From Myxococcota bacterium (GTDB taxonomy: Bacteria > Myxococcota_A > UBA9160 > SMWR01), in contig JBCCEW010000004.1 of NCBI GenBank assembly GCA_039030075.1, forward strand, positions 25,826 through 89,825: DNA of 64,000 nt, given 5' to 3'. Shown here in pieces: positions 18,725 through 42,270 of this stretch (position 1 is its first letter; each line of letters starts with the position of its first letter). Under the pieces are notes generated by a model that had not been told where the DNA came from, ran no database searches, and saw only the letters and a list, made by a program, of their open reading frames with translations. Both the position numbers and the translations under genes were made by a program.

Positions 18725-19024
18725 CGCGGTGCCGCGAAGCGGCGGTGTGTCACTGGAACTTGTTCTCGGGTGCGCCTAACACGGCCTGCGTCCCTCCGCT
18801 CGTGGAACACGTTTCAACCCTCGCGCCTCCGTCAATCCCGCCGGACGATTCCGCTTCTTTTCCTACACCGCTTGGCGTTAGGGTGGTGGCGTGCGTAAGT
18901 CGGGAAGACCGACGTGCGCCCGCGGTGGAGATCTCCTTCGACCACCCGAGCGTTTCGCTGGACGGCTGAACCACGTCGGTTCGGTCGTCATGGTCCTTCC
19001 CGCTCCCATCCTGGAGGGATCTTC

Positions 19025-20179: not shown

Positions 20180-20216
20180 GGAGCGGAAACGCGTCCCTAT
20201 CGCGAGTGACCCAACC

Positions 20217-20255
20217 GAGGCCCGGGTGGCGATGCCGCCCGGGCCTCTTCTTTTC
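20217..20255 (+). terminator. intrinsic terminator-like hairpin after P1
   Basis: GAGGCCCGGG-tggcgatgccg-CCCGGGCCTC followed by TTCTTTTC. Confidence 0.6.
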
Positions 20256-20345
20256 GGGAATGCGCGAGACGCCGAAATGCGCCGTTGCTTCTCGGAGGGT
20301 GGGTCGGGGACAATGCGGGTCCCTCATCGCCCCACTGGAACCGCC

Positions 20346-21491
20346 ATGCAGACGCGTTTTCCAGCCCGCTGGCTTCCGCGCAAGTTCGCTTGCGTCGCTC
20401 TGTGGCTCGCCGTTGCCATCCCCGCGCAGGGGTTGGTGGTGGAGTTCGATGCCACCTACACGGCGGGCCTCGGTGATGGAGGGAACCCCGCCACGGTCGA
20501 CGTGGCGCCGAACGGAAGGCCCGCCTGCAATCAGGGCCTCCAACCGCATATCAACGCGTCGATCCCGGGTCACGGATTCGCCCAGCTCGGGATCACCGCG
20601 CCGCGCTCGTTGATGGCGGTGCGCCCCTTCCACTACGGCGAAGCCGGCCCCACGACCGGCAACGCGACGATCATGGCAAAGCCCGGAGTCGCGGGCGTGA
20701 ACGGTTTCGCGCGGTACACCTCGAGCACCTGCAGCGTCACCTTCCCAACGGCGTTCATTCCCAGGTTCTTCGACCTCACCCTGTTCGGGCGCTTCACGGC
20801 GCCCGCCCACAACGCCATCAGCACGACGACGACACCGATGGGCCGGATGAGTTTCATGGCCACGACCATGGGACTCGAATCCCATCACCTCCGCGCAGGC
20901 GGTGGCGGAGGCGATTTCAGCTTCATGATCCCGACGAGCCTCTCGTGGATGCAAACGATCATGGGAACTGCCGGCGCGAACACCTTCGGGGGCGGCTGGC
21001 GTGCCTCCGGTGGAGGACGCGAGCACTGGTGGTACCCGGTCGCACCGGGTCAGGTCGTCTCGGGCTACTGGCTGAGTGGTCCCTGGAAGTTCGGGCACAA
21101 CGAACCGGTGAATACCCAGATCGTGAGCGCATACGGGGTATTCACCAACCTGGGCACGATGGGCGTGTTCCCGGCGACCGCACGCTTCTGGAATGCCCGC
21201 TTCACGACGGGCATGGTGAAGGCCGAGGACCACGGCGGACAGTTCATCACGATCCGGACGCAGACCGGTGGCGACAACCGGACGGGCCCCCACTCGAGCA
21301 TGGGGACACTCCTCCTCGTCACGCCCTGGACGGCGAACGTCATCCCGTTCCTAGGAGTCACGACCCTCCATTTCGGCGGCACCGCGACCTTGCGCTTCGA
21401 TTTCCTGCCCGAGCCGGGGCCAACTGTGCTCCTCGCACTCGGCGTGGGCGCCGTGCTGGTACTCCATCTCCTCTCGCGGCGCGGTCACTAG
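20346..21491 (+). CDS. PEP-CTERM protein, paralog P2 (subtype B)
   Basis: Signal peptide; LVVEFDATYTAGLGDGGNPATVDVAPNGRPACNQGLQPH...; C-terminal FLPEPGPTVLLALGVGAVLVLHLLSRRGH. Confidence 0.85.
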   Translation: MQTRFPARWLPRKFACVALWLAVAIPAQGLVVEFDATYTAGLGDGGNPATVDVAPNGRPACNQGLQPHINASIPGHGFAQLGITAPRSLMAVRPFHYGEAGPTTGNATIMAKPGVAGVNGFARYTSSTCSVTFPTAFIPRFFDLTLFGRFTAPAHNAISTTTTPMGRMSFMATTMGLESHHLRAGGGGGDFSFMIPTSLSWMQTIMGTAGANTFGGGWRASGGGREHWWYPVAPGQVVSGYWLSGPWKFGHNEPVNTQIVSAYGVFTNLGTMGVFPATARFWNARFTTGMVKAEDHGGQFITIRTQTGGDNRTGPHSSMGTLLLVTPWTANVIPFLGVTTLHFGGTATLRFDFLPEPGPTVLLALGVGAVLVLHLLSRRGH

Positions 21492-21494
21492 ACG

Positions 21495-22646
21495 ATGGGT
21501 GCGCACAGACGATCCGGGTTTGGAGTCGTTGCCGTCATCGCCGCCGCGCTCCTTCTCCTCGATCTCGCTCCTGCGTCAGCACTGGTCGTCGAATTCGACG
21601 CTACCTACACCGCCGGCCTCGGCGACGGCGGGAACCCGGCCACGATCGACGTGAGGCCGAATGGTCGGCCCATCTGCAACAAACGCTTGCAGCCACACCT
21701 CAACGCATCGATCCCAGGCCATGGGTTCGCAGCGCTGGGGGCGACCGCGCCGCGATCGCTCATGGCAGTCCGACCCTTCCACTACGGAGAAGCCGGGCCG
21801 ACCACAGGCAACGCCACGATCATGGCGAAGCCGGGCATCGCCGGATCCAACGGCTTCGCGAGGTACACGACGGGGACGTGCACCCTCACCTTCTCGCCGT
21901 TCATTCCCCTGTGGAGGTACTCCGACTTTTTTGGGAGGTTCACGGCCCCAGCCAACCACGCCATCGCAACGACGACCACGTCGATGGGGCGCATGAGATT
22001 CATGGCCACGACCATGGGCCTGGAGTCGCACCATCTGCGGGCAGGCGGTGGACCGGGAAGCTTCAGCTTCATGGTCCCAGCAACCCTCTCGCCGATGCAG
22101 ACGATCATGGGGACGGCCGGCGTGAACACCTTCGGCGGCGGCTGGCGCGCCTCGGGTGGCGGACGTCGCAGCGACGCGATCAACGCTGCTCCGGGAGTCG
22201 TGGTTTCGGGCTACTGGCTCACCGGCCCCTGGAAGTTCGGGCACAACGAACCCGTGAACACCCAGCTCGTGACCCAGTTCGGCGTCTTCACGAATCTGGC
22301 CACGATGGGCACGGCGCAGGTGACGGTTCGGGTGTGGAACGCCCGGTTCACGACGGGCATGGTCAAGGCCGAGGACAACGGAGGGCAGTTCATCACGGTC
22401 CGCACCCAGACCGGTGGCGACAACCGCACCGGACCCCACTCGAGCATGGGGACGCTTCTGCTCGTCACGCCCTGGACCGCGAATGTGATCCCGTACCTCG
22501 GAGGCGCCGCCAACCTCTACTTCGGAGGCACCGCGACGCTGCGCTTCGAATTCCTCCCCGAGCCCGGCCCGACGGCGCTTTTCGCGCTGGGTGTCGTGGC
22601 GGTGCTGACGCTCCATCGAGCATTGCGAGGACGCGGTCGGTCATGA
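21495..22646 (+). CDS. PEP-CTERM protein, paralog P3
   Basis: Same conserved N- and C-terminal blocks; 3-nt spacing from P2. Confidence 0.85.
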   Translation: MGAHRRSGFGVVAVIAAALLLLDLAPASALVVEFDATYTAGLGDGGNPATIDVRPNGRPICNKRLQPHLNASIPGHGFAALGATAPRSLMAVRPFHYGEAGPTTGNATIMAKPGIAGSNGFARYTTGTCTLTFSPFIPLWRYSDFFGRFTAPANHAIATTTTSMGRMRFMATTMGLESHHLRAGGGPGSFSFMVPATLSPMQTIMGTAGVNTFGGGWRASGGGRRSDAINAAPGVVVSGYWLTGPWKFGHNEPVNTQLVTQFGVFTNLATMGTAQVTVRVWNARFTTGMVKAEDNGGQFITVRTQTGGDNRTGPHSSMGTLLLVTPWTANVIPYLGGAANLYFGGTATLRFEFLPEPGPTALFALGVVAVLTLHRALRGRGRS

Positions 22647-23809
22647 ACGGACTCCTCGTCCGGAGAACCGCGGCCCTCCTCGCTGCCCTCACCACGCTCG
22701 TGTGGCCCCTTTACAGTTGCGCGCTGGTCGTCGAGTTCGACGCCACGTACACGGCGGGACAGGGCGATGGAGGTAATCCCGCAACCTTCGAGAATGCGCC
22801 GAATGGGCGTCCTATCTGCAACAAGGGGCTCCAAGCGCACCTCAATGCATCGATCCCAGGTCACGGCTTCGCCGAGTTGGGTGGCACGGCACCGCGTTCG
22901 CTGATGGCCGTGCGCCCGTTCCGCTACGGGGAGGCCGGCCCCACCACCGGTAACGCCACCGTCATGGCCAAACCCGGTATCGCGGGTGCGAACGGCTTCG
23001 CTCGCTACACGACGCACACCTGCGTCGTGTCGTTTCCGCCACCGTTCCTGCCTGCGATCTTTCCGGACCGAACCCTGTCTGGACGCTTCACAGCTCCGGC
23101 AGACAACGCGATCACGACCACGACTACGACGATGGGCCGGATGAGCTTCATGGTCACCACGATGGGTCTCGAATCCCACCACCTCCGCGCCAGCGGCGGC
23201 CCTGGCGACTTCAGCTTCATGGTGCCCGCATCCCTCGAGCCGAACAACGCCTGGAGTGGCAGCCCGATGCAGGGAATCCAAGGGGAGGCGGGTCCCAACA
23301 GCTTCGGTGGGGGTTGGAGGGCGTCCGGGTTCCATCGCGACAATCTGCAGTACCTCTTCGGGCCGGTGGTCTTCTCCGGCTACTGGGTGAGCGGCCCCTG
23401 GAAGTTCGGGCACAACGAGCCGGTAAATACCCAGGTGGTGAGCCAGTTCGCGGTCATGACGAACCTCGCCACCATGGGCACCTTCCCTGCAACCGTGCGT
23501 GTCTGGAACGCGCGCTTCACCACCGGGATGGTCAAGGCCCTGGACAACGGAGGGCAGTTCATCACGATTCGCACCCAGACCGGTGGCGACAACCGCACCG
23601 GCCCGCACTCGAGCATGGGAACCCTCCTGCTGGTCACACCGTGGACGGCCAGCGTGACGCCTTGGCTGGGAGGCGCGGCCAACCTCTACTTTGGCGGCAC
23701 CGCGACGCTGCGCTTCGAGTTCCTCCCCGAGTCCGGCCCGACCGCGCTATTCGCGCTCGGAGCCATGACGGTGCTAGCCCTCCACTTTTTCTCGCGGCGA
23801 GATCGCTAG
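22643..23809 (+). CDS. PEP-CTERM protein, paralog P4
   Basis: Start MNGLLVRRTAALLAALTTLVWPLYSCA overlaps P3 stop (ATGA); conserved blocks; PEP-CTERM FLPESGPTALFALGAMTVLALHFFSRRDR. Confidence 0.85.
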   Translation: MNGLLVRRTAALLAALTTLVWPLYSCALVVEFDATYTAGQGDGGNPATFENAPNGRPICNKGLQAHLNASIPGHGFAELGGTAPRSLMAVRPFRYGEAGPTTGNATVMAKPGIAGANGFARYTTHTCVVSFPPPFLPAIFPDRTLSGRFTAPADNAITTTTTTMGRMSFMVTTMGLESHHLRASGGPGDFSFMVPASLEPNNAWSGSPMQGIQGEAGPNSFGGGWRASGFHRDNLQYLFGPVVFSGYWVSGPWKFGHNEPVNTQVVSQFAVMTNLATMGTFPATVRVWNARFTTGMVKALDNGGQFITIRTQTGGDNRTGPHSSMGTLLLVTPWTASVTPWLGGAANLYFGGTATLRFEFLPESGPTALFALGAMTVLALHFFSRRDR

Positions 23810-23812
23810 ACG

Positions 23813-24985
23813 ATGGGCGCACGAGAACGAGCGAAGCTCGGTGGCGTCGTGGCTTCCCTACTCCTCCTGGCGGGGTTCGACTCCGCGTCGGCGCTGGTCG
23901 TCGAGTTCGACGCCACCTACTCCGCCGGCCTCGGCGATGGTGGAAACCCTGCCACGATCGACGTGCAGCCGAACGGCCGTCCCGCCTGCAATAGGGGCCT
24001 CCAGCCGCATCTCAATGCGTCGATTCCGGGCCACGGATTCGCCGAGCTGGGTGCGACAGCGCCGCGCTCGCTCATGGCCGTCCGCCCCTTCCACTACGGC
24101 GAAGCCGGGCCCACGACCGGCAACGCGACGATCATGGCGAAGCCCGGCGTCGCGGGCGTGAACGGCTTCGCGCGCTACTCCACCGCGACCTGCATCCTCA
24201 GCCTGCCTCCGAACTGCTGCCCGATCCTGGTCATCGACCACACCTGGATCGGTCGTTTCACCGCACCCGCCGACAACGCCATCACGACCTCGACGACGAC
24301 GATGGGACAGATGAGTTTCATGGTGACGACGATGGGGCTCGAATCGCACCACCTGCGGGTGGGTGGAGGCCCCGGCGACTTCACGTTCATGGTTCCGACC
24401 TCGCTGGCGCCGGATCCCATGGGCCTGAGCCCAATACAGAGCTTGATGGGCGCAGCAGGGCCCCACACCTTCGGCGGCGGTTGGCGCGCCTCCGGCGGCG
24501 GCCGTGAACGGTTCGTGCTCAATGCGGGCGTTGGCGTGGTGCTCTCGGGATCCTTCACAAGCGGCCCGTGGAAGTTCGGTCACAACGAGCTGGTGAACAC
24601 GCAGCTCGTGAGCCAGGTCGGATCTTTCACCAACCTGGCGACGATGGGAGTCGCCCCGGTCACCCTGCGCATCTGGAACGCCCGCTTCACCACGGGCGTG
24701 GTGAAGGCCGAGGACAACGGCGGGCAGTTCATCACCATCCGCACCCAGACGGGGGGCGACAACCGGACCGGCCCCCAATCGAGCATGGGCACGCTGCTCC
24801 TCGTCACACCCTGGACCGCGAGCGTCATCCCCTTCATCGGGGGCGCCGCCAACCTCTACTTCGGCGGCACCGCCAACCTTCGCTTCGAGTTCCTCCCCGA
24901 GCCCGGCCCGACGGCGCTCCTCGCACTCGGAGTCGCCCTGGTGCTGGGGCTCCACAGGGTCGCCCGAAGAGAAAGAGACCGATGA
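23813..24985 (+). CDS. PEP-CTERM protein, paralog P5
   Basis: Conserved blocks; C-terminal FLPEPGPTALLALGVALVLGLHRVARRERDR. Confidence 0.85.
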   Translation: MGARERAKLGGVVASLLLLAGFDSASALVVEFDATYSAGLGDGGNPATIDVQPNGRPACNRGLQPHLNASIPGHGFAELGATAPRSLMAVRPFHYGEAGPTTGNATIMAKPGVAGVNGFARYSTATCILSLPPNCCPILVIDHTWIGRFTAPADNAITTSTTTMGQMSFMVTTMGLESHHLRVGGGPGDFTFMVPTSLAPDPMGLSPIQSLMGAAGPHTFGGGWRASGGGRERFVLNAGVGVVLSGSFTSGPWKFGHNELVNTQLVSQVGSFTNLATMGVAPVTLRIWNARFTTGVVKAEDNGGQFITIRTQTGGDNRTGPQSSMGTLLLVTPWTASVIPFIGGAANLYFGGTANLRFEFLPEPGPTALLALGVALVLGLHRVARRERDR

Positions 24986-26154
24986 GACGAACGCTGCTCC
25001 AGGCTCGAAGCGCGCGTGCCGCGATCGTGATCGGACTCTACCTTCTCGCGTGGTCCCTTCCTGCGTCCGCCCTGGTCGTGGAGTTCGATGCCACCTATTC
25101 CGCCGGCCTCGGCGACGGTGGAAACCCAGCCACGCTCGATGTGGGGGCGAATGGACGGCCGATCTGCAACAAGGGCCTCCAGCCGCACCTCAACGCTTCG
25201 GTCCCGGGTCACGGCTTTGCCGAGTTGGGTGCGACGGCACCGCGGTCGCTGATGGCCGTCCGCCCCTTCCACTACGGCGTAGCAGGGCCCACCACCGGCA
25301 ACGCAACGATCATGGCAAAACCCGGGATCGCCGGCCTGAACGGCTTCGCCCGCTACACGATGGCCACCTGCGAGGTGACGGTGCCGCCCCACGGCCTCCC
25401 CGTTCCCCAGGTGGACCACACCTGGATCCAACGCTTCACCGCTCCCGCGAATCACGCGATCACGACCACCACGACGCCTATGGGCCGGCGCAGCTTCATG
25501 GCGAACCTCGGGATCCTGGAGTCACATCACCTGCGCGCCGAGGGCGGCCCGGGCACCTTCAGCTTCGTGGTCCCGGAGTCCCTGGAGCCCGCCCCCTGGA
25601 CCGGCAGCCCGATGCAGGGAATCCAAGGGGCCGCGGGCCCGAACACCTTCGGTGGCGGCTGGCGCGCCTCCGGCGGAGGCCGCCAGCAGCAGCAGGTCAA
25701 TGCGGCGCCCGGCGTGGTGATCTCCGGCTATTGGTTGAGCGGTCCGTGGAAGTTCGGCCACAACGAACCCGTGAACACCGAGCTCGTGAGTGCGTACGGC
25801 GTGTTCACCAACCTGGCCACGATGGGCACCATGCCCTTGACCCTCCGCGTCTGGAATGCCCGATTCACGACCGGCGTGGTGAAGGCCGAGGACAACGGCG
25901 GGCAGTTCATCACCATCCGCACCCAGACGGGCGGCGACAACCGGACGGGCCCGCATTCGAGCATGGGAACGCTGCTGCTCGTCACCCCGTGGACGGCGAG
26001 CGTCATTCCGTTCCTAGGAGTCACGACCCTCCACTTCGGCGGCACCGCCACGCTGCGCTTCGAGTTCCTGCCCGAGCCCGAGCCGACGGCGCTATTCGCG
26101 CTCGGAGCCATGACGGTGCTGGCGCTCCACTTCGTCTCGCGGCGAGATCGCTAG
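24982..26154 (+). CDS. PEP-CTERM protein, paralog P6
   Basis: Start MRRTLLQARSARAAIVIGLYLLAWSLPASA overlaps P5 stop (ATGA); conserved blocks; PEP-CTERM. Confidence 0.85.
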   Translation: MRRTLLQARSARAAIVIGLYLLAWSLPASALVVEFDATYSAGLGDGGNPATLDVGANGRPICNKGLQPHLNASVPGHGFAELGATAPRSLMAVRPFHYGVAGPTTGNATIMAKPGIAGLNGFARYTMATCEVTVPPHGLPVPQVDHTWIQRFTAPANHAITTTTTPMGRRSFMANLGILESHHLRAEGGPGTFSFVVPESLEPAPWTGSPMQGIQGAAGPNTFGGGWRASGGGRQQQQVNAAPGVVISGYWLSGPWKFGHNEPVNTELVSAYGVFTNLATMGTMPLTLRVWNARFTTGVVKAEDNGGQFITIRTQTGGDNRTGPHSSMGTLLLVTPWTASVIPFLGVTTLHFGGTATLRFEFLPEPEPTALFALGAMTVLALHFVSRRDR

Positions 26155-26157
26155 ACG

Positions 26158-27354
26158 ATGGGCGCACGAGAACGAGCGAAGTTCGGTGGCGTCGTGGCTT
26201 CCCTACTCCTCCTGGCGGGGTTCGACTCCGCGTCGGCTCTGGTCGTCGAATTCGACGCTACCTACACCGCTGGCCTCGGCGACGGCGGGAACCCCGCCAC
26301 GATCGACGTGGGGCTGAACGGTCGGCCCGTCTGCAACAAGGGCCTGCAACCGCATCTCAATGCGTCGGTCCCGGGCCACGGCTTCGCCGAGATCGGGACC
26401 ACCGCACCGCGGTCACTGATGGACGTGCGACCCTTCCGCTACGGGGAGGCGGGTCCCACCACCGGCAACGCAACGATCATGGCGAAACCCGGGATCGCGG
26501 GCATGAACGGCTTCGCCCGGTACACGCCGGGCACCTGCGTCATCCCGTTCCCCACGCCATTTCTACCGGCGATCTTCCCGAAGCAGACCCCGTCCGGACG
26601 ATTCACGGCGCCCGCGGACAACGCCCTGACGACCACGACGACGCCGATGGGCCGAATGAGCTTCATGGCCACGACCATGGGCCTCGAGTCACACCATCTG
26701 CGCGCGGGCGGTGGTGGTGGCAACTTCAGCTTCATGCTCCCGGCGTCGTTGGCGCCCATCAACCCTTGGAGCGGTAGCCCCATGCAGGGCATCCGAGGTA
26801 CCGCTGGCCCGAATTCCTTTGGAGGCGGCTGGCGGGCATCGGGTGCACACCGCCACAACCTGCAGATCTTCGCGGCCCCGGGGGTCGTCTTCTCGGGGTA
26901 TTGGGCGACCGGCCCCTGGAAGTTCGGTCACAACGAGCCGGTGAACACGCAGGTCGTCAGCCATCTCGCGATCCTCACGAACCTCGCAACCATGGGAACG
27001 CTTCAAGCCACCGCGCGCGTGTGGAATGCGCGTTTCACCACCGGCATGGTGAAGGCCGAAGACAACGGCGGGCAGTTCATCACGGTTCGGACCCAGACCG
27101 GTGGTGACAATCGGACCGGGCCGCACTCGAGCATGGGATCGTTGCTGCTCGTCACTCCCTGGACGGCCAGCGTGGTCCCATGGCTCTTCGGCGCCGCCAA
27201 CCTCCACTTCGGCGGCACTGCAACGCTGCGCTTCGAGTTCCTGCCCGAGCCGGGCCCGACAGCCCTCTTCGTCGCCGGCACGGTCGCGATCTCCGTCCTT
27301 CACGCGTTCTTCCGTCTGCGGGCGACGCGCCGATCAGCGCGACGCGGAGAGTAG
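26158..27354 (+). CDS. PEP-CTERM protein, paralog P7
   Basis: Conserved blocks; C-terminal FLPEPGPTALFVAGTVAISVLHAFFRLRATRRSARRGE. Confidence 0.85.
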   Translation: MGARERAKFGGVVASLLLLAGFDSASALVVEFDATYTAGLGDGGNPATIDVGLNGRPVCNKGLQPHLNASVPGHGFAEIGTTAPRSLMDVRPFRYGEAGPTTGNATIMAKPGIAGMNGFARYTPGTCVIPFPTPFLPAIFPKQTPSGRFTAPADNALTTTTTPMGRMSFMATTMGLESHHLRAGGGGGNFSFMLPASLAPINPWSGSPMQGIRGTAGPNSFGGGWRASGAHRHNLQIFAAPGVVFSGYWATGPWKFGHNEPVNTQVVSHLAILTNLATMGTLQATARVWNARFTTGMVKAEDNGGQFITVRTQTGGDNRTGPHSSMGSLLLVTPWTASVVPWLFGAANLHFGGTATLRFEFLPEPGPTALFVAGTVAISVLHAFFRLRATRRSARRGE

Positions 27355-27556
27355 AAGAGCGGCAACCCTTCCTAGCGCCGCCCGCTGACCCCCAGCGAAT
27401 CCCCAGGACGCCCCGACACTGCGCGGGGTTAGTGTGGGCGCGTGTCGCTGGGGGGTGCCCGGCCCGCTCTTCGAAGGCCCGGGAGCCCAGCGCTCCTGGA
27501 CGCGAGGCGCGCCTCACCGGCGCGCTCGTCCCGCTTGCGCCACAGGAGGGAATCGC

Positions 27557-28711
27557 ATGAAGACAGAACGAACCTTCACGCACCGTGCCGTCGTGGCAGC
27601 CTTCACGATCGCCCTGATCACACTCGGCCTGCCGGCCACCGCAGCGATCGTGGAGTTCAATGCCACCTACACCGCCGGGCTCGGAGACGGCGGCAACCCG
27701 GCGACGATCGACAACTCGCCGAACGGCCTACCGATCTGCAACCAGGGTCTACAGCCCCACCTCAACGCGTCCATCACGGGCAACGGCTTCGCCGAGCTCG
27801 GTGCAGTCGGGCCACGCTCACTCATGGCGGTGCGCCCGTTCAAGTACGGGGACGCCGGCATGACCACGGGCAACGTCACCATCATGGCGCGGCCCGGGGA
27901 GCCGGGCGTCAACGGCTTCCCGCAGTACGCCTCGAACACCTGCGTCGTTCCGTTCCCCGCGGCCTTCTTGCCCGCGATCCTGGCCGGTCGGACTCAGCTG
28001 TCTCGCTTCACCGGACCGGCGGACGATGCAATCACGACGACCGTGACCCCAATGGGCAAGATGAACTTCATGGTCACCAACATGGGACTCGAATCCCACC
28101 ACCTCCGCGCGGGCGGGGGTCCCGGAAACTTCAACTTCAAGGTGGACCCCGCCCTCTCGCCGATGCAGACGATCATGGGCACCGCCGGCGCCAACACCTT
28201 CGGTGGCGGCTGGCGCGCTTCGGGCGGAGGGCGCGTGAACCTCGCGGTCAACGCGGCACCCGGTGTCGTGATCTCCGGCTTCTGGCTCACCGGCCCCCGG
28301 AAGCTCGGTCACAACGAAGCGGTGAATACCCAGCTCGTCACCCAGACGGGCCTGTTCACGAACCTGGCGACGATGGGCGTCGCGCCCGTGACGCTGCGCG
28401 TCTGGAACGCACGCTTCACGACGGGCATGGTGAAGGCCGAGGACAACGGCGGCCAGTTCATCACGATCCGCAGCCAGACGGGCAACGACAACCGGACGGG
28501 CCCGTCTTCCAGCATGGGAACGCTCTTGCTGGTGACGCCCTGGACGGCGAGTCTGATCCCGTTCCTCGGCGGTGCGGCCAACCTCTACTTCGGCGGGACC
28601 GGCACCGTGCGCTTCGAGTTCGTGCCCGAGCCAGGGCCGACGACCCTGCTCGCGGCGGGCGTCCTCGGCGTGATCGCGCTGCACCTGGGCGTGCGCCGCC
28701 GCCGCCGCTAG
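27557..28711 (+). CDS. PEP-CTERM protein, paralog P8 (subtype A, most similar to P1)
   Basis: RBS AGGAGGG upstream of MKTERTFTHR...; AIVEFNATYTAGLGDGGNPATIDNSPNGLPICNQGLQPH...; C-terminal FVPEPGPTTLLAAGVLGVIALHLGVRRRRR. Confidence 0.85.
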   Translation: MKTERTFTHRAVVAAFTIALITLGLPATAAIVEFNATYTAGLGDGGNPATIDNSPNGLPICNQGLQPHLNASITGNGFAELGAVGPRSLMAVRPFKYGDAGMTTGNVTIMARPGEPGVNGFPQYASNTCVVPFPAAFLPAILAGRTQLSRFTGPADDAITTTVTPMGKMNFMVTNMGLESHHLRAGGGPGNFNFKVDPALSPMQTIMGTAGANTFGGGWRASGGGRVNLAVNAAPGVVISGFWLTGPRKLGHNEAVNTQLVTQTGLFTNLATMGVAPVTLRVWNARFTTGMVKAEDNGGQFITIRSQTGNDNRTGPSSSMGTLLLVTPWTASLIPFLGGAANLYFGGTGTVRFEFVPEPGPTTLLAAGVLGVIALHLGVRRRRR

Positions 28712-28778: not shown

Positions 28779-29132
28779 TCCTCGTCTACCGGTGCACGCA
28801 CGAGGGCTCGGACACAGCTCTCTGCGCAGCGGACCTCCTCGGGGCCTTGGGTGGCATCCAGATCGGGGCACGGGCCACCGGCGCGAGCACCGCAACGCGG
28901 GCGCGACGCGACCTGTCGTCGCACCCGCTCTCGCAACCTGCGGGCTCTCGCGCGTGCAGCTTTCCACCGGAACCGCGCGTTGCGTTGGCTGCGGTGGGTT
29001 TCCCGTCGCGAATCCATCGCTGCATTCGAATCAACAAATGTGTTTGCGATAGCTCTTTTTCGTGCCGACACAGTTGACACCGGAATGAGTCTCGTTACTC
29101 TGCCGCGCGCTCACAAGGGGAGCACCGTTCCA

Positions 29133-29294
29133 TGAAGAACCGATCGACGTACAAGCGCCATTCGATCGCCGCGAACGCGGCGGGCGAAGAGATCGCGCGC
29201 TCGCTCGGTTGCGGTGCTTCTTGGCGAACTCCGCATGCCGGCCGTTTCGCGCCCGCACTCGTCGGCCCGTTCGCCTTGGTGGATCCGAAGTAGC
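29133..29294 (+). CDS. small hypothetical ORF (53 aa) upstream of the tRNA array
   Basis: Strong RBS AAGGGGAG 7 nt upstream of ATG; preceded by TTGACA-like -35 at 29074; not in supplied track because under 60 aa. Confidence 0.3.
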
Positions 29295-29441
29295 GATCCG
29301 CGTCTGATTCCCGTTGGAGCCAGGACCTCCTAGCGCCGGAATCGGCGCGAAGGAGGTTTCTCTCTTTCGGGTTGTGTTCGCGCTCGAGGCGCGGGCTCGC
29401 TGGCGGCGTCGCCGCGGCGAACAGAACAGCCCTACGCATAC

Positions 29442-29517
29442 GCCGCATTGGCTCAGTGGCTAGAGCATCCGCTTGTCGAGCGGAAGAGCGCGGGTTCGAA
29501 TCCCGCATGCGGCGCCA
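29442..29517 (+). tRNA. tRNA-Asp (GTC)
   Basis: Cloverleaf: acceptor GCCGCAT/ATGCGGC, D GCTC-AGTGGCTA-GAGC, anticodon loop TTGTCGA, T-arm GCGGG-TTCGAAT-CCCGC, encoded CCA. Confidence 0.85.
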
Positions 29518-29523
29518 GTTCAC

Positions 29524-29600
29524 CAGGGTGTAGCTCAGTCGGGAAGAGCTCTTTCTTCGGAAGGAAGCGGTCGTTGGTTCGAATCCAACCACCCTGACCA
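29524..29600 (+). tRNA. tRNA-Pro (CGG)
   Basis: Acceptor CAGGGTG/CACCCTG, anticodon loop TTCGGAA, canonical T-loop TTCGAAT, CCA. Confidence 0.85.
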
Positions 29601-29601
29601 G

Positions 29602-29678
29602 GCCGGGGTAGCCCAATCGGCAGAGGCGACGGTCTTAGACACCGTTCAGTGTGGGTTCGAATCCCACCTCCGGTACCA
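29602..29678 (+). tRNA. non-canonical tRNA with anticodon TAG (Leu-decoding): class-II-like 3-bp D-stem but short 5-nt variable loop
   Basis: Acceptor GCCGGGG/CTCCGGT (2 G.U), D-arm GCC-CAATCGGCAGA-GGC resembling tRNA-Leu, anticodon stem ACGGT/ACCGT with loop CTTAGAC, variable TCAGT, T-arm GTGGG-TTCGAAT-CCCAC, A73, CCA. Confidence 0.6.
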
Positions 29679-29684
29679 GTTTTC

Positions 29685-29760
29685 ATCGGCGTAGCTCAGA
29701 GGACAGAGCACCGCTCTGCGAAGGCGGAGGCCGCAGGTTCGAGTCCTGCCGCCGATACCA
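29685..29760 (+). tRNA. tRNA-Arg (GCG; G34 where bacterial Arg tRNAs normally carry A34)
   Basis: Acceptor ATCGGCG/CGCCGAT, anticodon loop CTGCGAA, T-arm GCAGG-TTCGAGT-CCTGC, CCA. Confidence 0.7.
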
Positions 29761-29785
29761 GGATCCCAACAGAGGAGACGTTCGT

Positions 29786-29874
29786 TCCGTGGTGGCGGAA
29801 TTGGCAGACGCACCGGGTTGTTACCCCGGCGCCCGACACCGGGCTTGCAGGTTCGAGGCCTGCCCACGGAGCCA
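29786..29874 (+). tRNA. non-canonical class-II tRNA (long variable arm, Leu-like D-arm) with anticodon GTT (Asn-decoding)
   Basis: Acceptor TCCGTGG/CCACGGA, D-arm GCG-GAATTGGCAGA-CGC (near-identical to E. coli tRNA-Leu D-arm), anticodon stem CCGGG/CCCGG with loop TTGTTAC, 17-nt variable arm with GCCCG-ACAC-CGGGC stem-loop, T-arm GCAGG-TTCGAGG-CCTGC, G73, CCA. Confidence 0.6.
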
Positions 29875-29875
29875 G

Positions 29876-29950
29876 GCCGACATAGCTCATCGAGCAGAGC
29901 ACCTGTTTCGTAACCAGGAGAGCGGGGTGCAAGTCCTCGTGTCGGCTCCA
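29876..29950 (+). tRNA. tRNA-Thr (CGT), T-loop TGCAAGT (G55)
   Basis: Acceptor GCCGACA/TGTCGGC, anticodon loop TTCGTAA, D-loop lacks GG, T-arm CGGGG-TGCAAGT-CCTCG, CCA. Confidence 0.7.
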
Positions 29951-29955
29951 CAACA

Positions 29956-30030
29956 CGCGCGGTAGCTCAGGAAGCAGAGCGCCCGGTTGAAGCCCGGGAG
30001 GCGCTGGTGCGACTCCAGCCTGCGCGACCA
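29956..30030 (+). tRNA. tRNA-Phe (GAA), T-loop TGCGACT (G55)
   Basis: Acceptor CGCGCGG/CTGCGCG, anticodon loop TTGAAGC, T-arm GCTGG-TGCGACT-CCAGC, A73, CCA. Confidence 0.75.
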
Positions 30031-30062
30031 GATTCGATCGATTGGAGAAGTCGTTTGAAACA

Positions 30063-30129
30063 TGCGGAGAGACTCGGAGTCGACCCGGCGTCATGAGCCG
30101 GGGGAGCGGGTTCGACTCCCGCCTCCGCG
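30063..30129 (+). pseudogene. degenerate tRNA-Met-like element (anticodon CAT) with truncated D-arm, no encoded CCA
   Basis: Anticodon arm CCGGC-GTCATGA-GCCGG, T-arm GCGGG-TTCGACT-CCCGC, acceptor TGCGGAG/CTCCGCG, but only 15 nt between acceptor and anticodon stem (tight GACTC-G-GAGTC hairpin instead of a D-arm). Confidence 0.4.
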
Positions 30130-30134
30130 AGTTC

Positions 30135-30209
30135 GTCCACGTGGTCCAGCAGCACGGATTCCGGGTTCTCACCCCGGAGACGCGGGTGCAAACCCCGCCG
30201 TGGGCACCA
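30135..30209 (+). tRNA. tRNA-Glu (CTC), T-loop TGCAAAC (G55)
   Basis: Acceptor GTCCACG/CGTGGGC, D-arm GTCC-AGCAGCAC-GGAT, anticodon loop TTCTCAC, T-arm GCGGG-TGCAAAC-CCCGC, CCA. Confidence 0.75.
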
Positions 30210-30213
30210 GTTC

Positions 30214-30289
30214 TGGCGAGTAGCTCAGAGGAAAGAGCGCCGGTCTGATATGCCGGAGGTCGGGGGTGCGAGGCCCTCCTCGCCAACCA
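30214..30289 (+). tRNA. tRNA-Ile (GAT), T-loop TGCGAGG (G55)
   Basis: Acceptor TGGCGAG/CTCGCCA, anticodon loop CTGATAT, T-arm GGGGG-TGCGAGG-CCCTC, CCA. Confidence 0.75.
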
Positions 30290-30315
30290 GGATTCGAAAC
30301 AGAGGAGAACACTTC

Positions 30316-30390
30316 ACCGTCGTAGCTCAACGAATAGAGCGCCGCGCTTCGGACGCGGAGGATGGGGGTTTGAATCCCCCCGACGGTTCC
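30316..30390 (+). tRNA. tRNA-Arg-like (TCG) with D-loop lacking GG and T-loop TTTGAAT (T56)
   Basis: Acceptor ACCGTCG/CGACGGT perfect 7 bp, D-arm GCTC-AACGAATA-GAGC, anticodon stem CCGCG/CGCGG with loop CTTCGGA, CCA. Confidence 0.55.
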
Positions 30391-30396
30391 ATGCCA

Positions 30397-30469
30397 GGCG
30401 GACGTAGCTCAGGTGGCAGAGCGCCGGCGTGCCACGCCGGAGGCCGCGGGATCGAAGCCCGCCGTCCGC
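30397..30469 (+). tRNA. tRNA-Gly (GCC), T-loop ATCGAAG (A54), CCA not encoded
   Basis: Acceptor GCGGACG/CGTCCGC, D GCTC-AGGTGGCA-GAGC, anticodon loop GTGCCAC, T-arm GCGGG-ATCGAAG-CCCGC, U73. Confidence 0.7.
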
Positions 30470-30471
30470 TC

Positions 30472-30547
30472 CTGGGGGCAGGCGCAATCGGAAGCGCATC
30501 CGGATCTGACCCGGAAGGTTCGGGGTTCGACTCCCCGGCCCCCATCC
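30472..30547 (+). tRNA. tRNA-Gln (CTG)
   Basis: Acceptor TGGGGGC/GCCCCCA, D GCGC-AATCGGAA-GCGC, anticodon stem TCCGG/CCGGA with loop ATCTGAC, T-arm CGGGG-TTCGACT-CCCCG, CCA. Confidence 0.8.
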
Positions 30548-30556
30548 AAAGACGCA

Positions 30557-30629
30557 CAGGGTGCCCGTCGGCTGCGGCCCGGGGACTCCAAATCCCGCGG
30601 AGGAGGGATCGACACCTTCGCACCCTGCC
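30557..30629 (+). tRNA. tRNA-Trp (CCA) with shortened atypical D-arm and A54 T-loop
   Basis: Acceptor AGGGTGC/GCACCCT (like E. coli tRNA-Trp), anticodon loop CTCCAAA identical to E. coli Trp, T-arm GAGGG-ATCGACA-CCTTC, G73 CCA; only 14 nt for the D-arm region. Confidence 0.6.
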
Positions 30630-30636
30630 AAGAACA

Positions 30637-30713
30637 CGGTGGTCGTAGCTCAACGGGCGAGAGTGCCGCTCTGTGACTGCGGAGACCCGGGTTCGAGTCC
30701 CGGCGACCGCCCC
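30637..30713 (+). tRNA. tRNA-His (GTG) with G-1
   Basis: Extra 5' G(-1) opposite C73, acceptor GTGGTCG/CGACCGC, anticodon loop CTGTGAC, T-arm CCGGG-TTCGAGT-CCCGG, CCA. Confidence 0.8.
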
Positions 30714-30728
30714 AACCCGAAAGACACG

Positions 30729-30803
30729 CTGAGGCGTAGCTCGAAGGCAGAGCAACCGATTCTTAATCGGTGGGGTGTGGGTTCGAGTCCCACCGCCTCA
30801 ACC
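30729..30803 (+). tRNA. tRNA-Lys (CTT)
   Basis: Acceptor TGAGGCG/CGCCTCA, D GCTC-GAAGGCA-GAGC, anticodon stem ACCGA/TCGGT with loop TTCTTAA, T-arm GTGGG-TTCGAGT-CCCAC, CCA. Confidence 0.85.
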
Positions 30804-30954
30804 AACCACACCGCGCGATGCGCGCGAGAAGGAGACACGAACGAGGTCAGCGTGGGCGGATCGTCGCCAGCGGAGCCGGTTCTGCATGCCGGCCTGGCGC
30901 GCGGGAGCTGAGAATCGCTCTGGCGCGTACCCGCGACGGACGCAGCGCTTGCCG

Positions 30955-31030
30955 GCATGGATAGCTCCAGTGGAAGAGCAACGGTTTGTCACACCGTGGG
31001 TCGTCGGTTCGAATCCGACTCCAAGCGCCA
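30955..31030 (+). tRNA. tRNA-Asp (GTC), second copy
   Basis: Acceptor GCATGGA/TCCAAGC (one A-A mismatch), D GCTC-CAGTGGAA-GAGC, anticodon stem ACGGT/ACCGT with loop TTGTCAC, T-arm GTCGG-TTCGAAT-CCGAC, CCA. Confidence 0.7.
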
Positions 31031-31095
31031 CTGCCTTCGAAGCAGTCCAATGGTCACGGCACCCGCCGCGGGGTTCGACTCCCCACCAACAAGAG
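31031..31095 (+). other. tRNA-like remnant (anticodon-arm-like CTGC-CTTCGAA-GCAG hairpin plus T-arm-like CGGGG-TTCGACT-CCCC) without a complete acceptor stem
   Basis: Contains GGTTCGACTCC T-loop consensus but cannot be folded into a full cloverleaf; directly abuts the last tRNA. Confidence 0.3.
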
Positions 31096-31426
31096 AAAGA
31101 AACGGGAGGCCCTCCCGCGTCACGGCGCGGAGTCGGTCGGGTGGCGACGCGGTCCTGGCGCTCGCCGCCCGGGTGGCGATGCGAGTGACGCAGCACCGGA
31201 GCGGCCCCGAGCCCGCGCCGCTGCCCGAGCCTGGTCGGTCGCAGCCGGCGGCGAGGAGCCGACCCGGCCCCACTGGTCGGCTCCGCAACCGCCACAAACG
31301 GTTCATCCGGCGCGAGCAAGCGCAGGGCCCGCCGCTCCGGTGTGGAGGGCCTCCCAACCCAACGATTTCCGAGGAGCGAGAGGGTCTCGCACCTCGCCAC
31401 ACACGAAGACCCTGGAGGTCGAGAAC

Positions 31427-32575
31427 ATGCGCAAGCTGTGGAAGCTCTACACGAAGTGGGAGATCGCGGATCACGAGCGCGGTCTGCTCTTTCAGCGCGA
31501 CAACTTCGTCCGCGTGCTGATGCCGGGTACGCACCGGCTCGCGGACCCGTTGGGCCGCATGCACGTGGACAAGTACGACCTCACGAATCCGGTGTTCGAG
31601 CACCCGATCGATGAGTTCCTGGTCAAGACGCACCCGGAGCTCGCGGATCACCTGACGGTGGTCGAGCTGGGTGACCGTGAGGTGGGTCTCGCTCACGTGG
31701 ACGGCAAGCTCGCCGACGTGCTGGCGCCGGCGACGCGGACGATCTTCTGGAAGGGCCTGCACAAGGTGCGGGTCCACGTCCAGGACGTGTCGGACGACTT
31801 CGCCGTGCCGCGCGAGATCGTGGGTCTGCTAGGTCGAGCGCTACCGCTGACGCGGCTGGCGAAGGCGGTCGAGCTGACGCACGTCTCGGACGGCCACGTG
31901 GGCCTGCTGCTGGTGGACGGCGTGCTCGAGCGCGTGCTCGAGCCGGGCGCGCACGCCTTCTGGAAGTGGGGCCGTGGGCTCCAGGTGCGACACCTGGACC
32001 TGCGACTCCAGAGCCTGGAGGTGTCGGGCCAGGAGATCCTGTCGAAGGACAAGGTCAGCCTGCGTCTCAACCTGACGGCGGGCTTCCGGGTCACTGACCC
32101 GGAGCGCGCCTTCCACGCGGTGCCGGACTTCGCGGACTTCCTGTACAAGGAGCTGCAGTTCGCTCTGCGTGAGGCGGTGGGTACACAGACCCTGGACGAG
32201 ATCCTCGCCAGCAAGGACGAGCTCGGCCAGTCGATCCACCGACAGGTCCGAGCGCGTGCGACGGAGGTCGGCCTCGAGGTGTCGAGCGTCGGTGTGAAGG
32301 ACATCATCCTCCCGGGTGAGATGAAGACACTGCTCAACCAGGTGGTGGAGGCGGAGAAGCAGGCGCAGGCCAACCTGATCCGCCGCCGGGAGGAGACCGC
32401 GGCCACGCGGTCGCTTCACAACACGGCGAAGATGCTCGAGCGAAGCCCGACGCTGCTCCGGCTCAAGGAGCTGGAGGCGCTGGAGAAGGTCACCGAGCGG
32501 ATCGACAAGCTCACCGTCTTCGGTGGTCTCGACGGCGTGCTTCACCAGTTGGTGAAGCTGGGCGACGGCGACTGA
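31427..32575 (+). CDS. SPFH/band-7 (slipin-like) domain protein, apparently cytoplasmic, with duplicated N-terminal about 60-aa repeat
   Basis: RBS GGAGGTCGAGAAC-ATG; band-7 core ...VSLRLNLTAGFRVTDPERAFHAV.DFADFLYKELQFALREAVGTQTLDEILASKDELGQSIHRQVRARATEVGLEVSSVGVKDIILPGEM... followed by coiled coil; no N-terminal TM helix. Confidence 0.75.
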   Translation: MRKLWKLYTKWEIADHERGLLFQRDNFVRVLMPGTHRLADPLGRMHVDKYDLTNPVFEHPIDEFLVKTHPELADHLTVVELGDREVGLAHVDGKLADVLAPATRTIFWKGLHKVRVHVQDVSDDFAVPREIVGLLGRALPLTRLAKAVELTHVSDGHVGLLLVDGVLERVLEPGAHAFWKWGRGLQVRHLDLRLQSLEVSGQEILSKDKVSLRLNLTAGFRVTDPERAFHAVPDFADFLYKELQFALREAVGTQTLDEILASKDELGQSIHRQVRARATEVGLEVSSVGVKDIILPGEMKTLLNQVVEAEKQAQANLIRRREETAATRSLHNTAKMLERSPTLLRLKELEALEKVTERIDKLTVFGGLDGVLHQLVKLGDGD

Positions 32576-32684: not shown

Positions 32685-34160
32685 ATGGCCAAGCGTCGAC
32701 GACGCGCTCGGCTGCGACCGCGGCTAGCGGTACCGCACCGGGTGGCAAAGCACATCGAGCGGCTCGGACTCTACGACGCGGCGGACTACCTGGCTTGGTG
32801 CCGCGCTCGGGGGTTCCGCGCGTGTGTGCAAAAGAGCTTCGCGGAGCTCGAACAGGAGTGGTGCGTCCACGGTCGCGACCTCGTTCGCGCGCGCTTTCGC
32901 TATCGCAAGGACCGCAAGCCCGGCCGCATGATCGCGGATGTTTGCGCGGGGCGCGCGGTGGCGGGCGATCTCGCGCGGCCCCGGTGGCGCAGCCTCGCGG
33001 AGCGGATCGAGCGCGCCCGGCTGGCTCCGGCCGCACGTCGCGCACTGCGCACGCTCGTCGAGATCTGCGATCGCAAGGGCGACCTGCTCCTCGCCGAAGG
33101 AGTCTTCGGGCACGCCCACTACGCGTTCGTCGACGGCTTGATCGGTCTCAGCCGCCATCATCGATCCTGGCTGCGCTCCCCCCAGGCATGGTGCGTGCGC
33201 ACCCACAACGCGCGGCGGCAGTTCGCCTCGCTCAGTCGACACCTCCTGGCGCGCTACCCCGTGCCGGCGTTTCTCGATGCTGCCTGGCTACGTGACGACC
33301 GCGCCGCGGGCGCCTACCGAGATTGGTTCGTGCGCGTGGGAAACGGACGGAGCCTGCGACGGGTCGCCGCACCCATCACCCTCAGCCACCGCATCGTGCA
33401 CCACTTCCTGGGGGCACCCGAGCACTACTCGATCGAGCAGGCCCTGCGCCGCGGACAGATCCGCGCATCGGGAGGCGACGACCGTCTGGTAGACGCCGTC
33501 GCCGGAACGAGGCTCGGCGACCACTTCCAGCACGAAGCGTTCTGGGCGACCGTCCTCGCGTTCCTCGCGAGGAACCCGGAACTCGACTCCAGCCAGGTCG
33601 GCCCGATCGTCGACTACCTGCACCACCAGCGATTCGTCGAGCGGGACGTCTTCGTAGCCCGCGGAGAACGACGTCGGCTTCCGGCGCCTCAGCCTCACCT
33701 GTCGATGAAGGGACGCCGACTGTCCGTTCTGTTGCGTCAGGTCGCTCGCTGGCATCGGGAACTCGCGCGGAGCGGTCCGGGAGCCAGCATCCGCTGGAAG
33801 CCCAGTGGCATCGGGGCACTGGATTTCGAGACGGGGGTCCCCGGCAAGAGCCTGCGCGTCTGGCGGATTCGGGAACTCCTGTCGGCCTCCGAGCTGCGCC
33901 GCGAAGGCAGCGTGCTGCGCCATTGTGTCGCCAGCTACGCCGGCGCGTGCGCATCGGGGAGTGCGTCGATCTGGACCATGGAACTCTGGAGCTTCGAGGG
34001 CGTCCAGAAGCGCCAGACGATCGAAGTCAGCCCGAACCGGGTGATCGTCCAGTGTCGCGGCCGCTTCAACCGCGATCCGAACGAACAGGAGCGGCAGATG
34101 CTGTCGCGCTGGGCCCAGCAGGAGATGCTGACGATCAGTCGCTTCGTCGCGACGGCGTAG
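32685..34160 (+). CDS. PcfJ-like protein (family common on conjugative elements and phages)
   Basis: C-terminal ELRREGSVLRHCVASYAGACASGSASIWTMELWSFEGVQKRQTIEVSPNRVIVQCRGRFN matches the PcfJ-like domain consensus (..EG..M.HCV.SY......G..SI..L.........T.EV.....V.Q.RG..N). Confidence 0.65.
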   Translation: MAKRRRRARLRPRLAVPHRVAKHIERLGLYDAADYLAWCRARGFRACVQKSFAELEQEWCVHGRDLVRARFRYRKDRKPGRMIADVCAGRAVAGDLARPRWRSLAERIERARLAPAARRALRTLVEICDRKGDLLLAEGVFGHAHYAFVDGLIGLSRHHRSWLRSPQAWCVRTHNARRQFASLSRHLLARYPVPAFLDAAWLRDDRAAGAYRDWFVRVGNGRSLRRVAAPITLSHRIVHHFLGAPEHYSIEQALRRGQIRASGGDDRLVDAVAGTRLGDHFQHEAFWATVLAFLARNPELDSSQVGPIVDYLHHQRFVERDVFVARGERRRLPAPQPHLSMKGRRLSVLLRQVARWHRELARSGPGASIRWKPSGIGALDFETGVPGKSLRVWRIRELLSASELRREGSVLRHCVASYAGACASGSASIWTMELWSFEGVQKRQTIEVSPNRVIVQCRGRFNRDPNEQERQMLSRWAQQEMLTISRFVATA

Positions 34161-42075: not shown

Positions 42076-42270
42076 TCCATTCGTTGGCGGTTCAGGGACG
42101 CATCACCGTAACGCGAGGCGCCCATCGAGAGAAGCGTGTTCCGAGCCCGGCGTCCGGGCCCGCGGGGCCGCAAGCGCGGCTGCTGCGCGCTCGTGAACTT
42201 CGGGCTTCCGAGCCAGCCGGCCCTCGGAGTAGGCTGGTGGTGTCTGCCACCCCGTCGAGGGAGGTCGCCT

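Follow-up and report, generated by a model that had tools for sequence, protein, structure and literature searches.

A tRNA gene array beside a b7a/Band-7/PcfJ module in a Myxococcota genome: a probable accessory tRNA operon linked to Rtc RNA repair

A 64-kb stretch of a Myxococcota bacterium metagenome-assembled genome (MAG; GCA_039030075.1, contig JBCCEW010000004.1, positions 25,826 to 89,825), hereafter the window, carries 16 tRNA or tRNA-like genes followed by the gene for a band-7-associated tRNA-like RNA (b7a-tRNA), a Band-7 gene and a gene encoding a PcfJ-domain protein. We consider it probable that this array is an accessory tRNA operon coupled, both physically and evolutionarily, to the b7a/Band-7/PcfJ branch of Rtc RNA repair, and that it provides a stress-linked auxiliary or decoy set of tRNAs. 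The evidence consists of the anatomy of the array, its orthology and synteny with related loci, purifying selection on every member and the match between its anticodons and the codons of the host. Arrays of tRNA genes are already known, and so is the module of b7a and Band-7 in Rtc operons; what appears to be new is their fusion, with 0 to ~20 tRNAs in the array, together with a PcfJ partner that is also present in phage tRNA clusters and the conservation of aberrant tRNAs.

Results

The earlier note on this DNA, made from the letters alone, described a dense same-strand set of 17 tRNA-like genes, and both ARAGORN and the Rfam tRNA model RF00005 bear it out. ARAGORN called 16 tRNA genes at 29442-31030 on the + strand, with the anticodons read in that note, and 15 of the 17 array genes pass the RF00005 gathering score (47.7-73.6 bits, E 3e-14 to 4e-7); the two below the threshold are the Met-like and the Trp-like members. 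Fifteen independent matches to the tRNA model in 1.6 kb rule out chance. With 16-17 genes, the array reaches a density of ~10 tRNA genes per kb and is non-periodic. The spacers had been put at 1-25 nt apart from a single gap of 150 nt; the gap is real, and the remaining spacers, with all genes on the + strand in the ARAGORN output, span 0-30 nt. The array had also been drawn as far as 31095, but full tRNA-like genes end at 31030, and 31031-31095 holds only a partial tRNA-like piece.

Judged by its position, the 17th gene (30955-31030, +), which ARAGORN calls tRNA-Asp (GTC) and RF00005 scores at 56 bits, is the local copy of b7a-tRNA, a tRNA-resembling non-coding RNA beside a Band-7 gene. Exactly one tRNA-like gene lies 270-420 nt 5' of the Band-7 start in all eight Band-7 loci with DNA; in the window it lies 397 nt upstream and aligns with the same-position element of the seven other loci. 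The body of the element is kept across loci (…GGATAGCTCAG..GGTAGAGCAACGG…CCGTGGGTCGCAGGTTCGAATCCTGCTCCA…), and its anticodon differs between loci or is unreadable (GTC, GTG, GCC, TTG, ATG or none). When trained on the seven other b7a loci, a covariance model gave 73.6 bits for 30955-31030, which is its top match outside the training set and lies 14 bits above every other tRNA of the window. Because this model does not fully separate b7a from ordinary tRNAs, the identification rests on synteny. A band 7-associated tRNA beside RtcB and Band-7 was predicted by Burroughs & Aravind 2016, as quoted in a passage of bioRxiv 10.1101/312249.

The b7a element is followed on the + strand by the gene for a 382-aa Band-7/SPFH (slipin) protein (31427-32575; Pfam Band_7 E = 8e-30; MEM7409660.1), which has no evident membrane segment, and then by the gene for a 491-aa PcfJ-domain protein (32685-34160; Pfam PcfJ E = 1.7e-12; MEM7409661.1). 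Orthologues of the Band-7 protein, with 52-81% identity, are encoded within operons of the type RtcR (- strand), RtcB, RtcA in the related loci L004/L005, L086, L087 and L089 (Microbulbifer variabilis) and in the P0145 contig, and the orthologue in L088 is located near Hen1-Pnkp. This orthology identifies the window gene as the Band-7 gene that belongs to Rtc RNA-repair operons, the type encoded together with RtcB. The arrangement in L004/L005 (JGI) reads RtcR (-), tRNA-Arg (GCG), RtcB, RtcA, tRNAs for Asp, Phe, Leu (CAG), Tyr and His, an aberrant tRNA-like gene, Band_7, PcfJ, two RlaP and Pnkp-Hen1. A sigma-54-type -24/-12 element, GGCAC-N5-TCGC, is present in all four readable RtcR-RtcB intergenic regions (L004:4772-4785, L086:7097-7110, L087:6445-6458 and L089:8049-8062). 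In L004, the tRNA-Arg (GCG) gene is located between this element and rtcB, 28 nt upstream of rtcB and thus inside its leader. An SPFH gene is also embedded in the rtc locus of Pseudomonas aeruginosa (PMC13086221).

The PcfJ-domain protein has connections to both RNA repair and tRNA clusters. Among 80 metagenomic loci, PcfJ relatives are often encoded beside RtcB (L010, L020-L025, L059 and L083) or beside Hen1/RlaP (L046 and L047), and in the metagenomic locus L085 a PcfJ-like gene lies amid 18 tRNAs. In IMG/VR, relatives with 26-40% identity are located on viral contigs of 130-490 kb, and tRNA clusters surround several of the PcfJ-like genes (9 tRNAs in L090, 25 in L092, 7 in L097 and 5 in L104; also L097/L098). 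In L092, where the 25 tRNAs occupy 17 kb, a tRNA-Trp gene begins 5 nt past the PcfJ-like gene. A relative with 45% identity was found in a Planctomycetota locus, and no tRNAs are present there. The scan of viral sequences with the Band-7 protein returned no relatives, and defence-system and NCBIfam models gave nothing informative on Band-7, PcfJ or the paralogue encoded upstream of the array.

One relative, L003 (ENA), has the whole arrangement: its Band-7 and PcfJ proteins are 81% and 67% identical to those of the window, and ~20 tRNA genes, ordered as they are here, precede b7a, Band-7 and PcfJ. L003 additionally has genes for Ala, Val and Cys and one with a Tyr-like body whose anticodon is GGT. 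Identity to the window is 87% in the tRNA bodies and 40% in the spacers between them, and changes affect 15 of 340 helix positions and 50 of 419 other positions. This sequence comparison reveals purifying selection on every array member, the odd ones included; given the contrast between bodies and spacers and the retention of the aberrant members, they are functional RNAs and not decaying pseudogenes. Across the Band-7 loci, the slot upstream of b7a holds no tRNAs in L086, L088 and L089, two (Asp and His) in L087, five plus one in L004, 16 in the window and ~20 in L003; of eight loci, two have a long array and two a short one.

The anticodons of the array follow the codon usage of its surroundings. 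For 12 of 15 amino acids, judged on 38 window genes, the array anticodon is the Watson-Crick partner of the top codon. This count includes Arg-GCG, an anticodon rare among bacteria that pairs with CGC, the top Arg codon of the host. Such a fit is expected if the tRNAs decode in a GC-rich host, and it would argue against the array having recently come from a low-GC phage. No array gene serves Ala, Val, Ser, Cys or Tyr, a canonical tRNA-Leu and an initiator are also absent, and most codon boxes are covered by C34 or G34 only, without a U34 isoacceptor. Since five amino acids are missing and most boxes are restricted in this way, the array is presumably supplementary and not the sole tRNA set of the cell; the earlier description of about one gene per amino acid, unlike a normal tRNA operon, is supported. 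By the rules established for Escherichia coli, most members keep standard identity elements: G-1 and C73 in His; C1-G72 and A73 in Pro; U73, G1-C72, C2-G71 and G3-C70 in Gly. The discriminator is A73 in Phe, Ile, Lys and Leu and G73 in Asp and in the tRNA with the GTT anticodon, and most members encode CCA.

The claim that many members are non-canonical holds in part. Five are clearly aberrant (the TAG short-arm, the GTT long-arm, the Met-like, the Trp-like and the last 'Asp'), and the others mostly keep the usual identity elements, several of them with an unusual 1-72 pair (A1, U1 or C1 instead of G1). The Met-like (CAT) gene (30061-30130, +; called by ARAGORN) is 70 nt long, with a mismatched acceptor stem, a hairpin-type D arm and no encoded CCA. 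Its best Rfam match is a sub-threshold one to tRNA-Sec (24 bits), and it is 86% identical to L003 7085-7156, with a compensatory change in the T stem. The Trp-like (CCA) gene (30558-30630, +) was called only at a relaxed ARAGORN threshold and scores 21 bits in Rfam, but it retains a cloverleaf fold, in which the acceptor stem has 8 bp and the D arm is small. It is also the best-conserved member of the array, as 71 of 73 positions match L003 7891-7963 (97%). Exact motifs of the Trp-like and Met-like genes had no matches in scans of viral contigs. The GTT (Asn) member (29786-29874, +; ARAGORN, RF00005 47.7 bits) is class-II-shaped, with a long variable arm, a Leu-type D arm and G73; its counterpart in L003 has an identical anticodon loop and G73, and its variable arm is short. 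The last 'Asp', which is the b7a element, has an A·A mismatch within its acceptor stem.

The TAG member (29602-29678, +; ARAGORN, RF00005) is probably a real tRNA-Leu of a widespread phage-borne family, to go by its primary sequence and fold. Its D arm is of Leu type (3-bp stem, 11-nt loop), its variable loop has 5 nt and its discriminator is A73; identity between the window and L003 is 92%. The orthologues in L003 and L004 have a CAG anticodon, with compensatory changes in the anticodon stem, and the gene can be aligned with the 77-nt tRNA-Leu of Pseudomonas phage ZC03 (L112:1501-1577), where the stem changes are again compensatory. We defined the family by a 3-bp D stem, the 11-nt loop CAAYNGGCAGA, a 5-nt variable loop, the T arm GTGGGTTCGAATCCCAC, A73 and a Leu anticodon, all of which are present in 29602-29678, as in the short-variable-arm tRNA-Leu of phages. 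The motif scanned for in IMG/VR was constrained in the D arm, the variable/T region and at A35 alone, so that any NAN anticodon was allowed, and it returned 37 viral contigs (L114-L150), every one with a TAA or CAA anticodon. These contigs have a GC content of 36-53%, and the gene is 77 nt long with A73.

Other members vary in unusual ways among the loci. The Tyr-like class II body (GGAT…ATCCACCA) carries a GTA anticodon in L004:7919-8002 and GGT (Thr) in L003:7717-7802. Sequence comparison of this body, together with the class II tRNA of the window with its GTT anticodon, shows that these arrays mix bodies and anticodons. The orthologue of tRNA-Glu (CTC) in L003 (7157-7289) carries a ~53-nt insertion of GC-rich hairpins in its T arm, because of which neither ARAGORN nor Rfam detects it. 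The anticodon loop YUGUCGA, with G37-A38, is present in all four tRNA-Asp genes linked to Rtc or Band-7 (window 29442-29517, L003:6457-6532, L004:7640-7713 and L087:9189-9262), which belong to two sequence types that are mutually only ~70% identical. The tRNA-Asp of E. coli has A37-C38.

Upstream of the array, the window and L003 share a conserved layout (window 29074-29368, L003:5963-6262), which comprises a promoter-like element, a leader, two small conserved hairpins and a strong hairpin. A putative sigma-70-like promoter, TTGACA-N16-TACTCT (29074-29101, +), was read from the sequence on the strength of its conservation with L003, where the equivalent is TTGACA-N16-TAATCT, followed, as in the window, by GCCGCGCGCTC. 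The consensus scanner called no sigma-70 promoter there, because the -10 hexamer has only 3 of 6 matches. The leader contains a small open reading frame (ORF) of ~53 codons (29133-29293, +). The ORF at the same place in L003 has 50 codons; its peptide is dissimilar, and the 3' end of the ORF is kept at the nucleotide level. A strong hairpin with a T-tract, resembling an intrinsic terminator (29324-29368, +), lies 70 nt before the first tRNA. It overlaps partially with the terminator scan, and a 14-bp hairpin is common to the window and L003 in a two-sequence consensus fold. From these two sequences, it could act as an attenuator.

Discussion

We propose that the 16 tRNA and tRNA-like genes would have grown in the slot just upstream of b7a, the cytosolic Band-7 gene and the PcfJ-domain gene. 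Damage to tRNAs, by anticodon nucleases or under translational stress, would switch the module on, with array and module genes being co-transcribed and induced together. The array would then supply a compact set of replacement tRNAs, aminoacylated and tuned to the most-used G/C-ending codons of the host, and these tRNAs may also serve as decoys for the nuclease. The b7a-tRNA, Band-7 and PcfJ would aid an RNA ligase whose gene lies in another part of the genome. In the window and in L003, the module would have parted from rtcBA and from the sigma-54 promoter, to stand now behind its own sigma-70-like promoter, leader and terminator-like hairpin.

Several observations weigh against this proposal. 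In the 64-kb window, tblastn gave no match to RtcR, RtcB, RtcA, Pnkp, Hen1 or RlaP, so that neither RtcB nor another RNA ligase is adjacent to the module, and no sigma-54-like element was found upstream of the array. Because the window lacks rtc genes and this element, the link to Rtc runs through orthology and through the relatives, not through this locus. The terminator-like hairpin stands between the array and its sole recognisable promoter. The b7a model is only modestly specific, as it gives ordinary tRNAs of a plasmid locus (L113) up to 69 bits. Extra tRNAs are present in just four independent loci, and between the small and the large arrays the only clear orthologues are the short-arm Leu (83%) and Arg-GCG (79%); Asp and His of L004 and L087 are 67-72% identical to those of the large arrays, like tRNAs in general. 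Part of the growth of the array may thus reflect independent recruitment into the same slot.

It is unlikely, in our judgement, that the array is instead a horizontally acquired phage or mobile long array that came to lie beside b7a by chance or insertion and has no functional relation to Band-7 and PcfJ. Long arrays do spread horizontally (PMC8421152; PMC4758250), the short-arm Leu family occurs on those 37 viral contigs, PcfJ-like genes sit within phage tRNA clusters, the neighbours of the module differ among the window, L003 and L004, and relatives carry anything from 0 to ~20 tRNAs. The earlier note had likewise compared the array with those of mobile elements and called its flanks island-like; the flanking SPFH and PcfJ-like genes, however, are conserved partners of the array and not markers of an island. 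Among ~50 ORFs of the 64 kb scanned with Pfam, none was recognised as an integrase, transposase, relaxase, phage structural gene or homing endonuclease, a repeat search found no att-like direct repeats flanking the array, and GC is flat (0.64-0.72), without the deviating composition of a genomic island. With the anticodons also fitting local codon usage, we rejected a mobile island or prophage. A likeness of the whole array to plasmids or phages was rejected as well, since phage and plasmid records match at most two adjacent members and do not have the order in common. Moreover, the position and orientation of the array relative to b7a, Band-7 and PcfJ are constant although the Band-7 proteins differ by 19-33%, and L004 has one member in the rtcB leader. 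Some horizontal input remains plausible from the sequence data, because one member belongs to a phage-borne tRNA-Leu family and the contexts of the module differ among relatives.

We give even less weight to the possibility that the array RNAs do not decode at all and are cofactors, decoys or substrates of the Band-7/PcfJ/ligase machinery, in the manner of b7a-tRNA or of the tRNA-like domain of Y RNAs. Such roles would suit the contiguity of the array with b7a, the strong conservation of five members with aberrant architecture, the mixing of bodies and anticodons (a Leu-like class II body with GTT; in L003, a Tyr-like body with GGT) and the unusual G37-A38 in four of four Rtc-linked tRNA-Asp genes. 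Colicin-E5-type nucleases target tRNAs with GUN anticodons, and the smallest arrays contain tRNAs of this class, for Asp and His. YrlA has been suggested to act as a decoy (PMC7790460). Yet most members keep standard identity elements and encode CCA, and their anticodons follow the codon preference of the host, which would be expected only with decoding. That the locus is an ordinary compact housekeeping operon, or a decaying cluster of pseudogenes, seems highly improbable, even though 15 members exceed the Rfam threshold and the genes are tightly spaced on one strand. A housekeeping operon fits poorly with the absence of Ala, Val, Ser, Cys, Tyr, canonical Leu and initiator genes, with C34/G34-only decoding of most boxes, with the aberrant members and with a count that ranges from 0 to ~20 genes among relatives. 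Decay, in turn, is at odds with an identity of 87% in bodies against 40% in spacers.

A bolder extension of the accessory-operon proposal, which we regard as doubtful, is that the array, b7a, Band-7 and PcfJ form a dedicated system for rescue of the tRNA pool or defence against ribotoxins, common to bacteria and huge phages. In such a system, the array would give replacement or nuclease-resistant tRNAs, the unusual architectures included, and PcfJ would be an unrecognised tRNA-acting enzyme, possibly with a GNAT-like fold.

The module resembles the known b7a/Band-7 module in having a tRNA-like gene, with a non-conserved anticodon, a few hundred nucleotides upstream of a cytosolic Band-7 gene, and in a Band-7 protein orthologous to those of RtcR-RtcB-RtcA operons. 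It differs in that rtcBA is not adjacent, 16 tRNA or tRNA-like genes precede b7a and a PcfJ gene follows Band-7. The array itself is similar to the L-array of PCC 7120 (Santamaria-Gomez et al. 2021, PMC8421152) in being same-strand, tight and non-periodic, with about one gene per amino acid and with aberrant members, and its genes share one direction and operon-like distances as in L-arrays, which are defined as anomalously long, without a numeric cut-off, and as sporadic in their distribution among relatives (PMC8421152). Those arrays have 23-43 genes, against 16-17 here, and the present one is located on the chromosome of a Myxococcota MAG, has no homing-endonuclease neighbour and is fused to b7a/Band-7/PcfJ. 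Cyanobacterial long arrays have rtcB nearby and are co-induced with it under translational stress, and roles in replenishment and as a sponge for toxin RNases have been proposed (PMC8421152); Band-7, slipin and Myxococcota do not figure in that paper. In Salmonella, the rsr-yrlBA-rtcBA operon also links a scaffold protein and a tRNA-mimicking RNA to Rtc (Hughes et al. 2020, PMC7790460), and it is induced by damaged tRNAs through RtcR and sigma-54 (PMC7790460). There, the scaffold is a Ro60 orthologue and the RNAs are Y RNAs, whereas here the scaffold would be Band-7 and most of the RNAs are complete tRNAs that can probably be charged; the Rfam search gave no match above threshold to a Y RNA model.

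Tran et al. 2016 define a tRNA array unit by at least 20 tRNA genes at a density of at least two per kb (PMC4758250). The present array is much denser at ~10 per kb but has 15-17 genes. Those units and the arrays of Mycobacterium (PMC5966550) share its high tRNA density, and differ in phylum and context. Phage and huge-phage tRNA clusters have in common with the array the dense same-strand arrangement, the short-arm tRNA-Leu family and the embedded PcfJ-like genes. They differ from it in that the array is chromosomal, has the GC content of its host and matches host codons rather than complementing them, and none of the phage records has the order of the window array.

Bacterial tRNA arrays are mostly regarded as cryptic, horizontally transferred cargo, and to our knowledge the b7a-tRNA/Band-7 arm of Rtc repair has never been tested experimentally. 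The locus and its relatives physically unite the two, and they suggest a testable model in which some bacteria meet tRNA damage both by repair and with a reserve of codon-optimised tRNAs. The tRNA genes of phages are believed to serve likewise against tRNA-cleaving host defences. The PcfJ-domain family becomes a candidate tRNA-related protein family, and the occurrence of short-arm tRNA-Leu on many viral contigs bears on what leucyl-tRNA synthetase (LeuRS) needs for recognition.

Further features of the locus

The remaining array members, all on the + strand, begin with tRNA-Asp (GTC; 29442-29517; RF00005 73.6 bits), 87% identical to L003 6457-6532, and tRNA-Pro (CGG; 29524-29600; RF00005 62.8 bits), with a 95% identical orthologue in L003. 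These two and all those below were found by both ARAGORN and RF00005. The tRNA-Arg (GCG; 29685-29760) is 95% identical to its L003 orthologue and has an orthologue in L004 as well; tRNA-Phe (GAA; 29956-30030) is 96% identical to L003. The comparison with L003 also covered tRNA-Thr (CGT; 29876-29950), tRNA-Ile (GAT; 30214-30289), tRNA-Arg (TCG; 30316-30391) and tRNA-Lys (CTT; 30730-30804), and tRNA-Gln (CTG; 30473-30548) has its L003 counterpart at 7807-7880. The set is completed by tRNA-Glu (CTC; 30135-30209), tRNA-His (GTG; 30639-30714), with G-1 encoded and C73, and tRNA-Gly (GCC; 30398-30472), the 3' end of which touches the next gene, so that the last A of CCA is not encoded.

The non-coding sequence on both sides of b7a, at 30805-30954 and 31031-31426, is conserved at the nucleotide level in three to four loci, unlike the spacers between the tRNAs. 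The 5' part (30805-30954, +) is a non-tRNA spacer with 79% identity to L003 and partial conservation in L004. On the 3' side, the partial tRNA-like piece (31031-31095, +), which folds into an anticodon-arm-like hairpin followed by a T-arm-like one, is kept in L003 and L008 but not in L004, and is followed by a non-coding leader of the Band-7 gene (31096-31426, +) with block conservation in four loci. This leader holds GGGAGGCCCTCCC (31104-31116) and its reverse complement GGAGGGCCTCCC (31344-31355), which could pair across ~230 nt or function as operators. A longer RNA, or a structured leader, may include the tRNA-like unit of b7a as one of its domains.

Besides the array, the window has the usual regulatory and metabolic content of a large genome of soil type, with genes for P450s, TetR regulators, sigma factors, a DUF4388/TPR response regulator and a CarH-like regulator. 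The plasmid locus L113 corresponds to 98.5-105.2 kb of pYJN5-1 (440 kb) from Paenarthrobacter sp. YJN-5, where more than 30 tRNA-model matches fall within 6.6 kb; the PLSDB gene table of this actinobacterial plasmid has no annotation for this very dense array. In the window, eight tandem paralogues of ~385-425 aa, with 64-76% mutual identity, directly precede the array region at 18914-28711 (+), and none has a Pfam or NCBIfam match. A ninth paralogue, 47% identical, is located at 42136-43413 (+). Finally, the product of a gene at 50374-52395 (-) has 673 aa, unusually long for FtsZ, and a Tubulin/FtsZ GTPase domain (Pfam E = 1e-15); the gene adjoins one for a 465-aa sigma-70 family protein.

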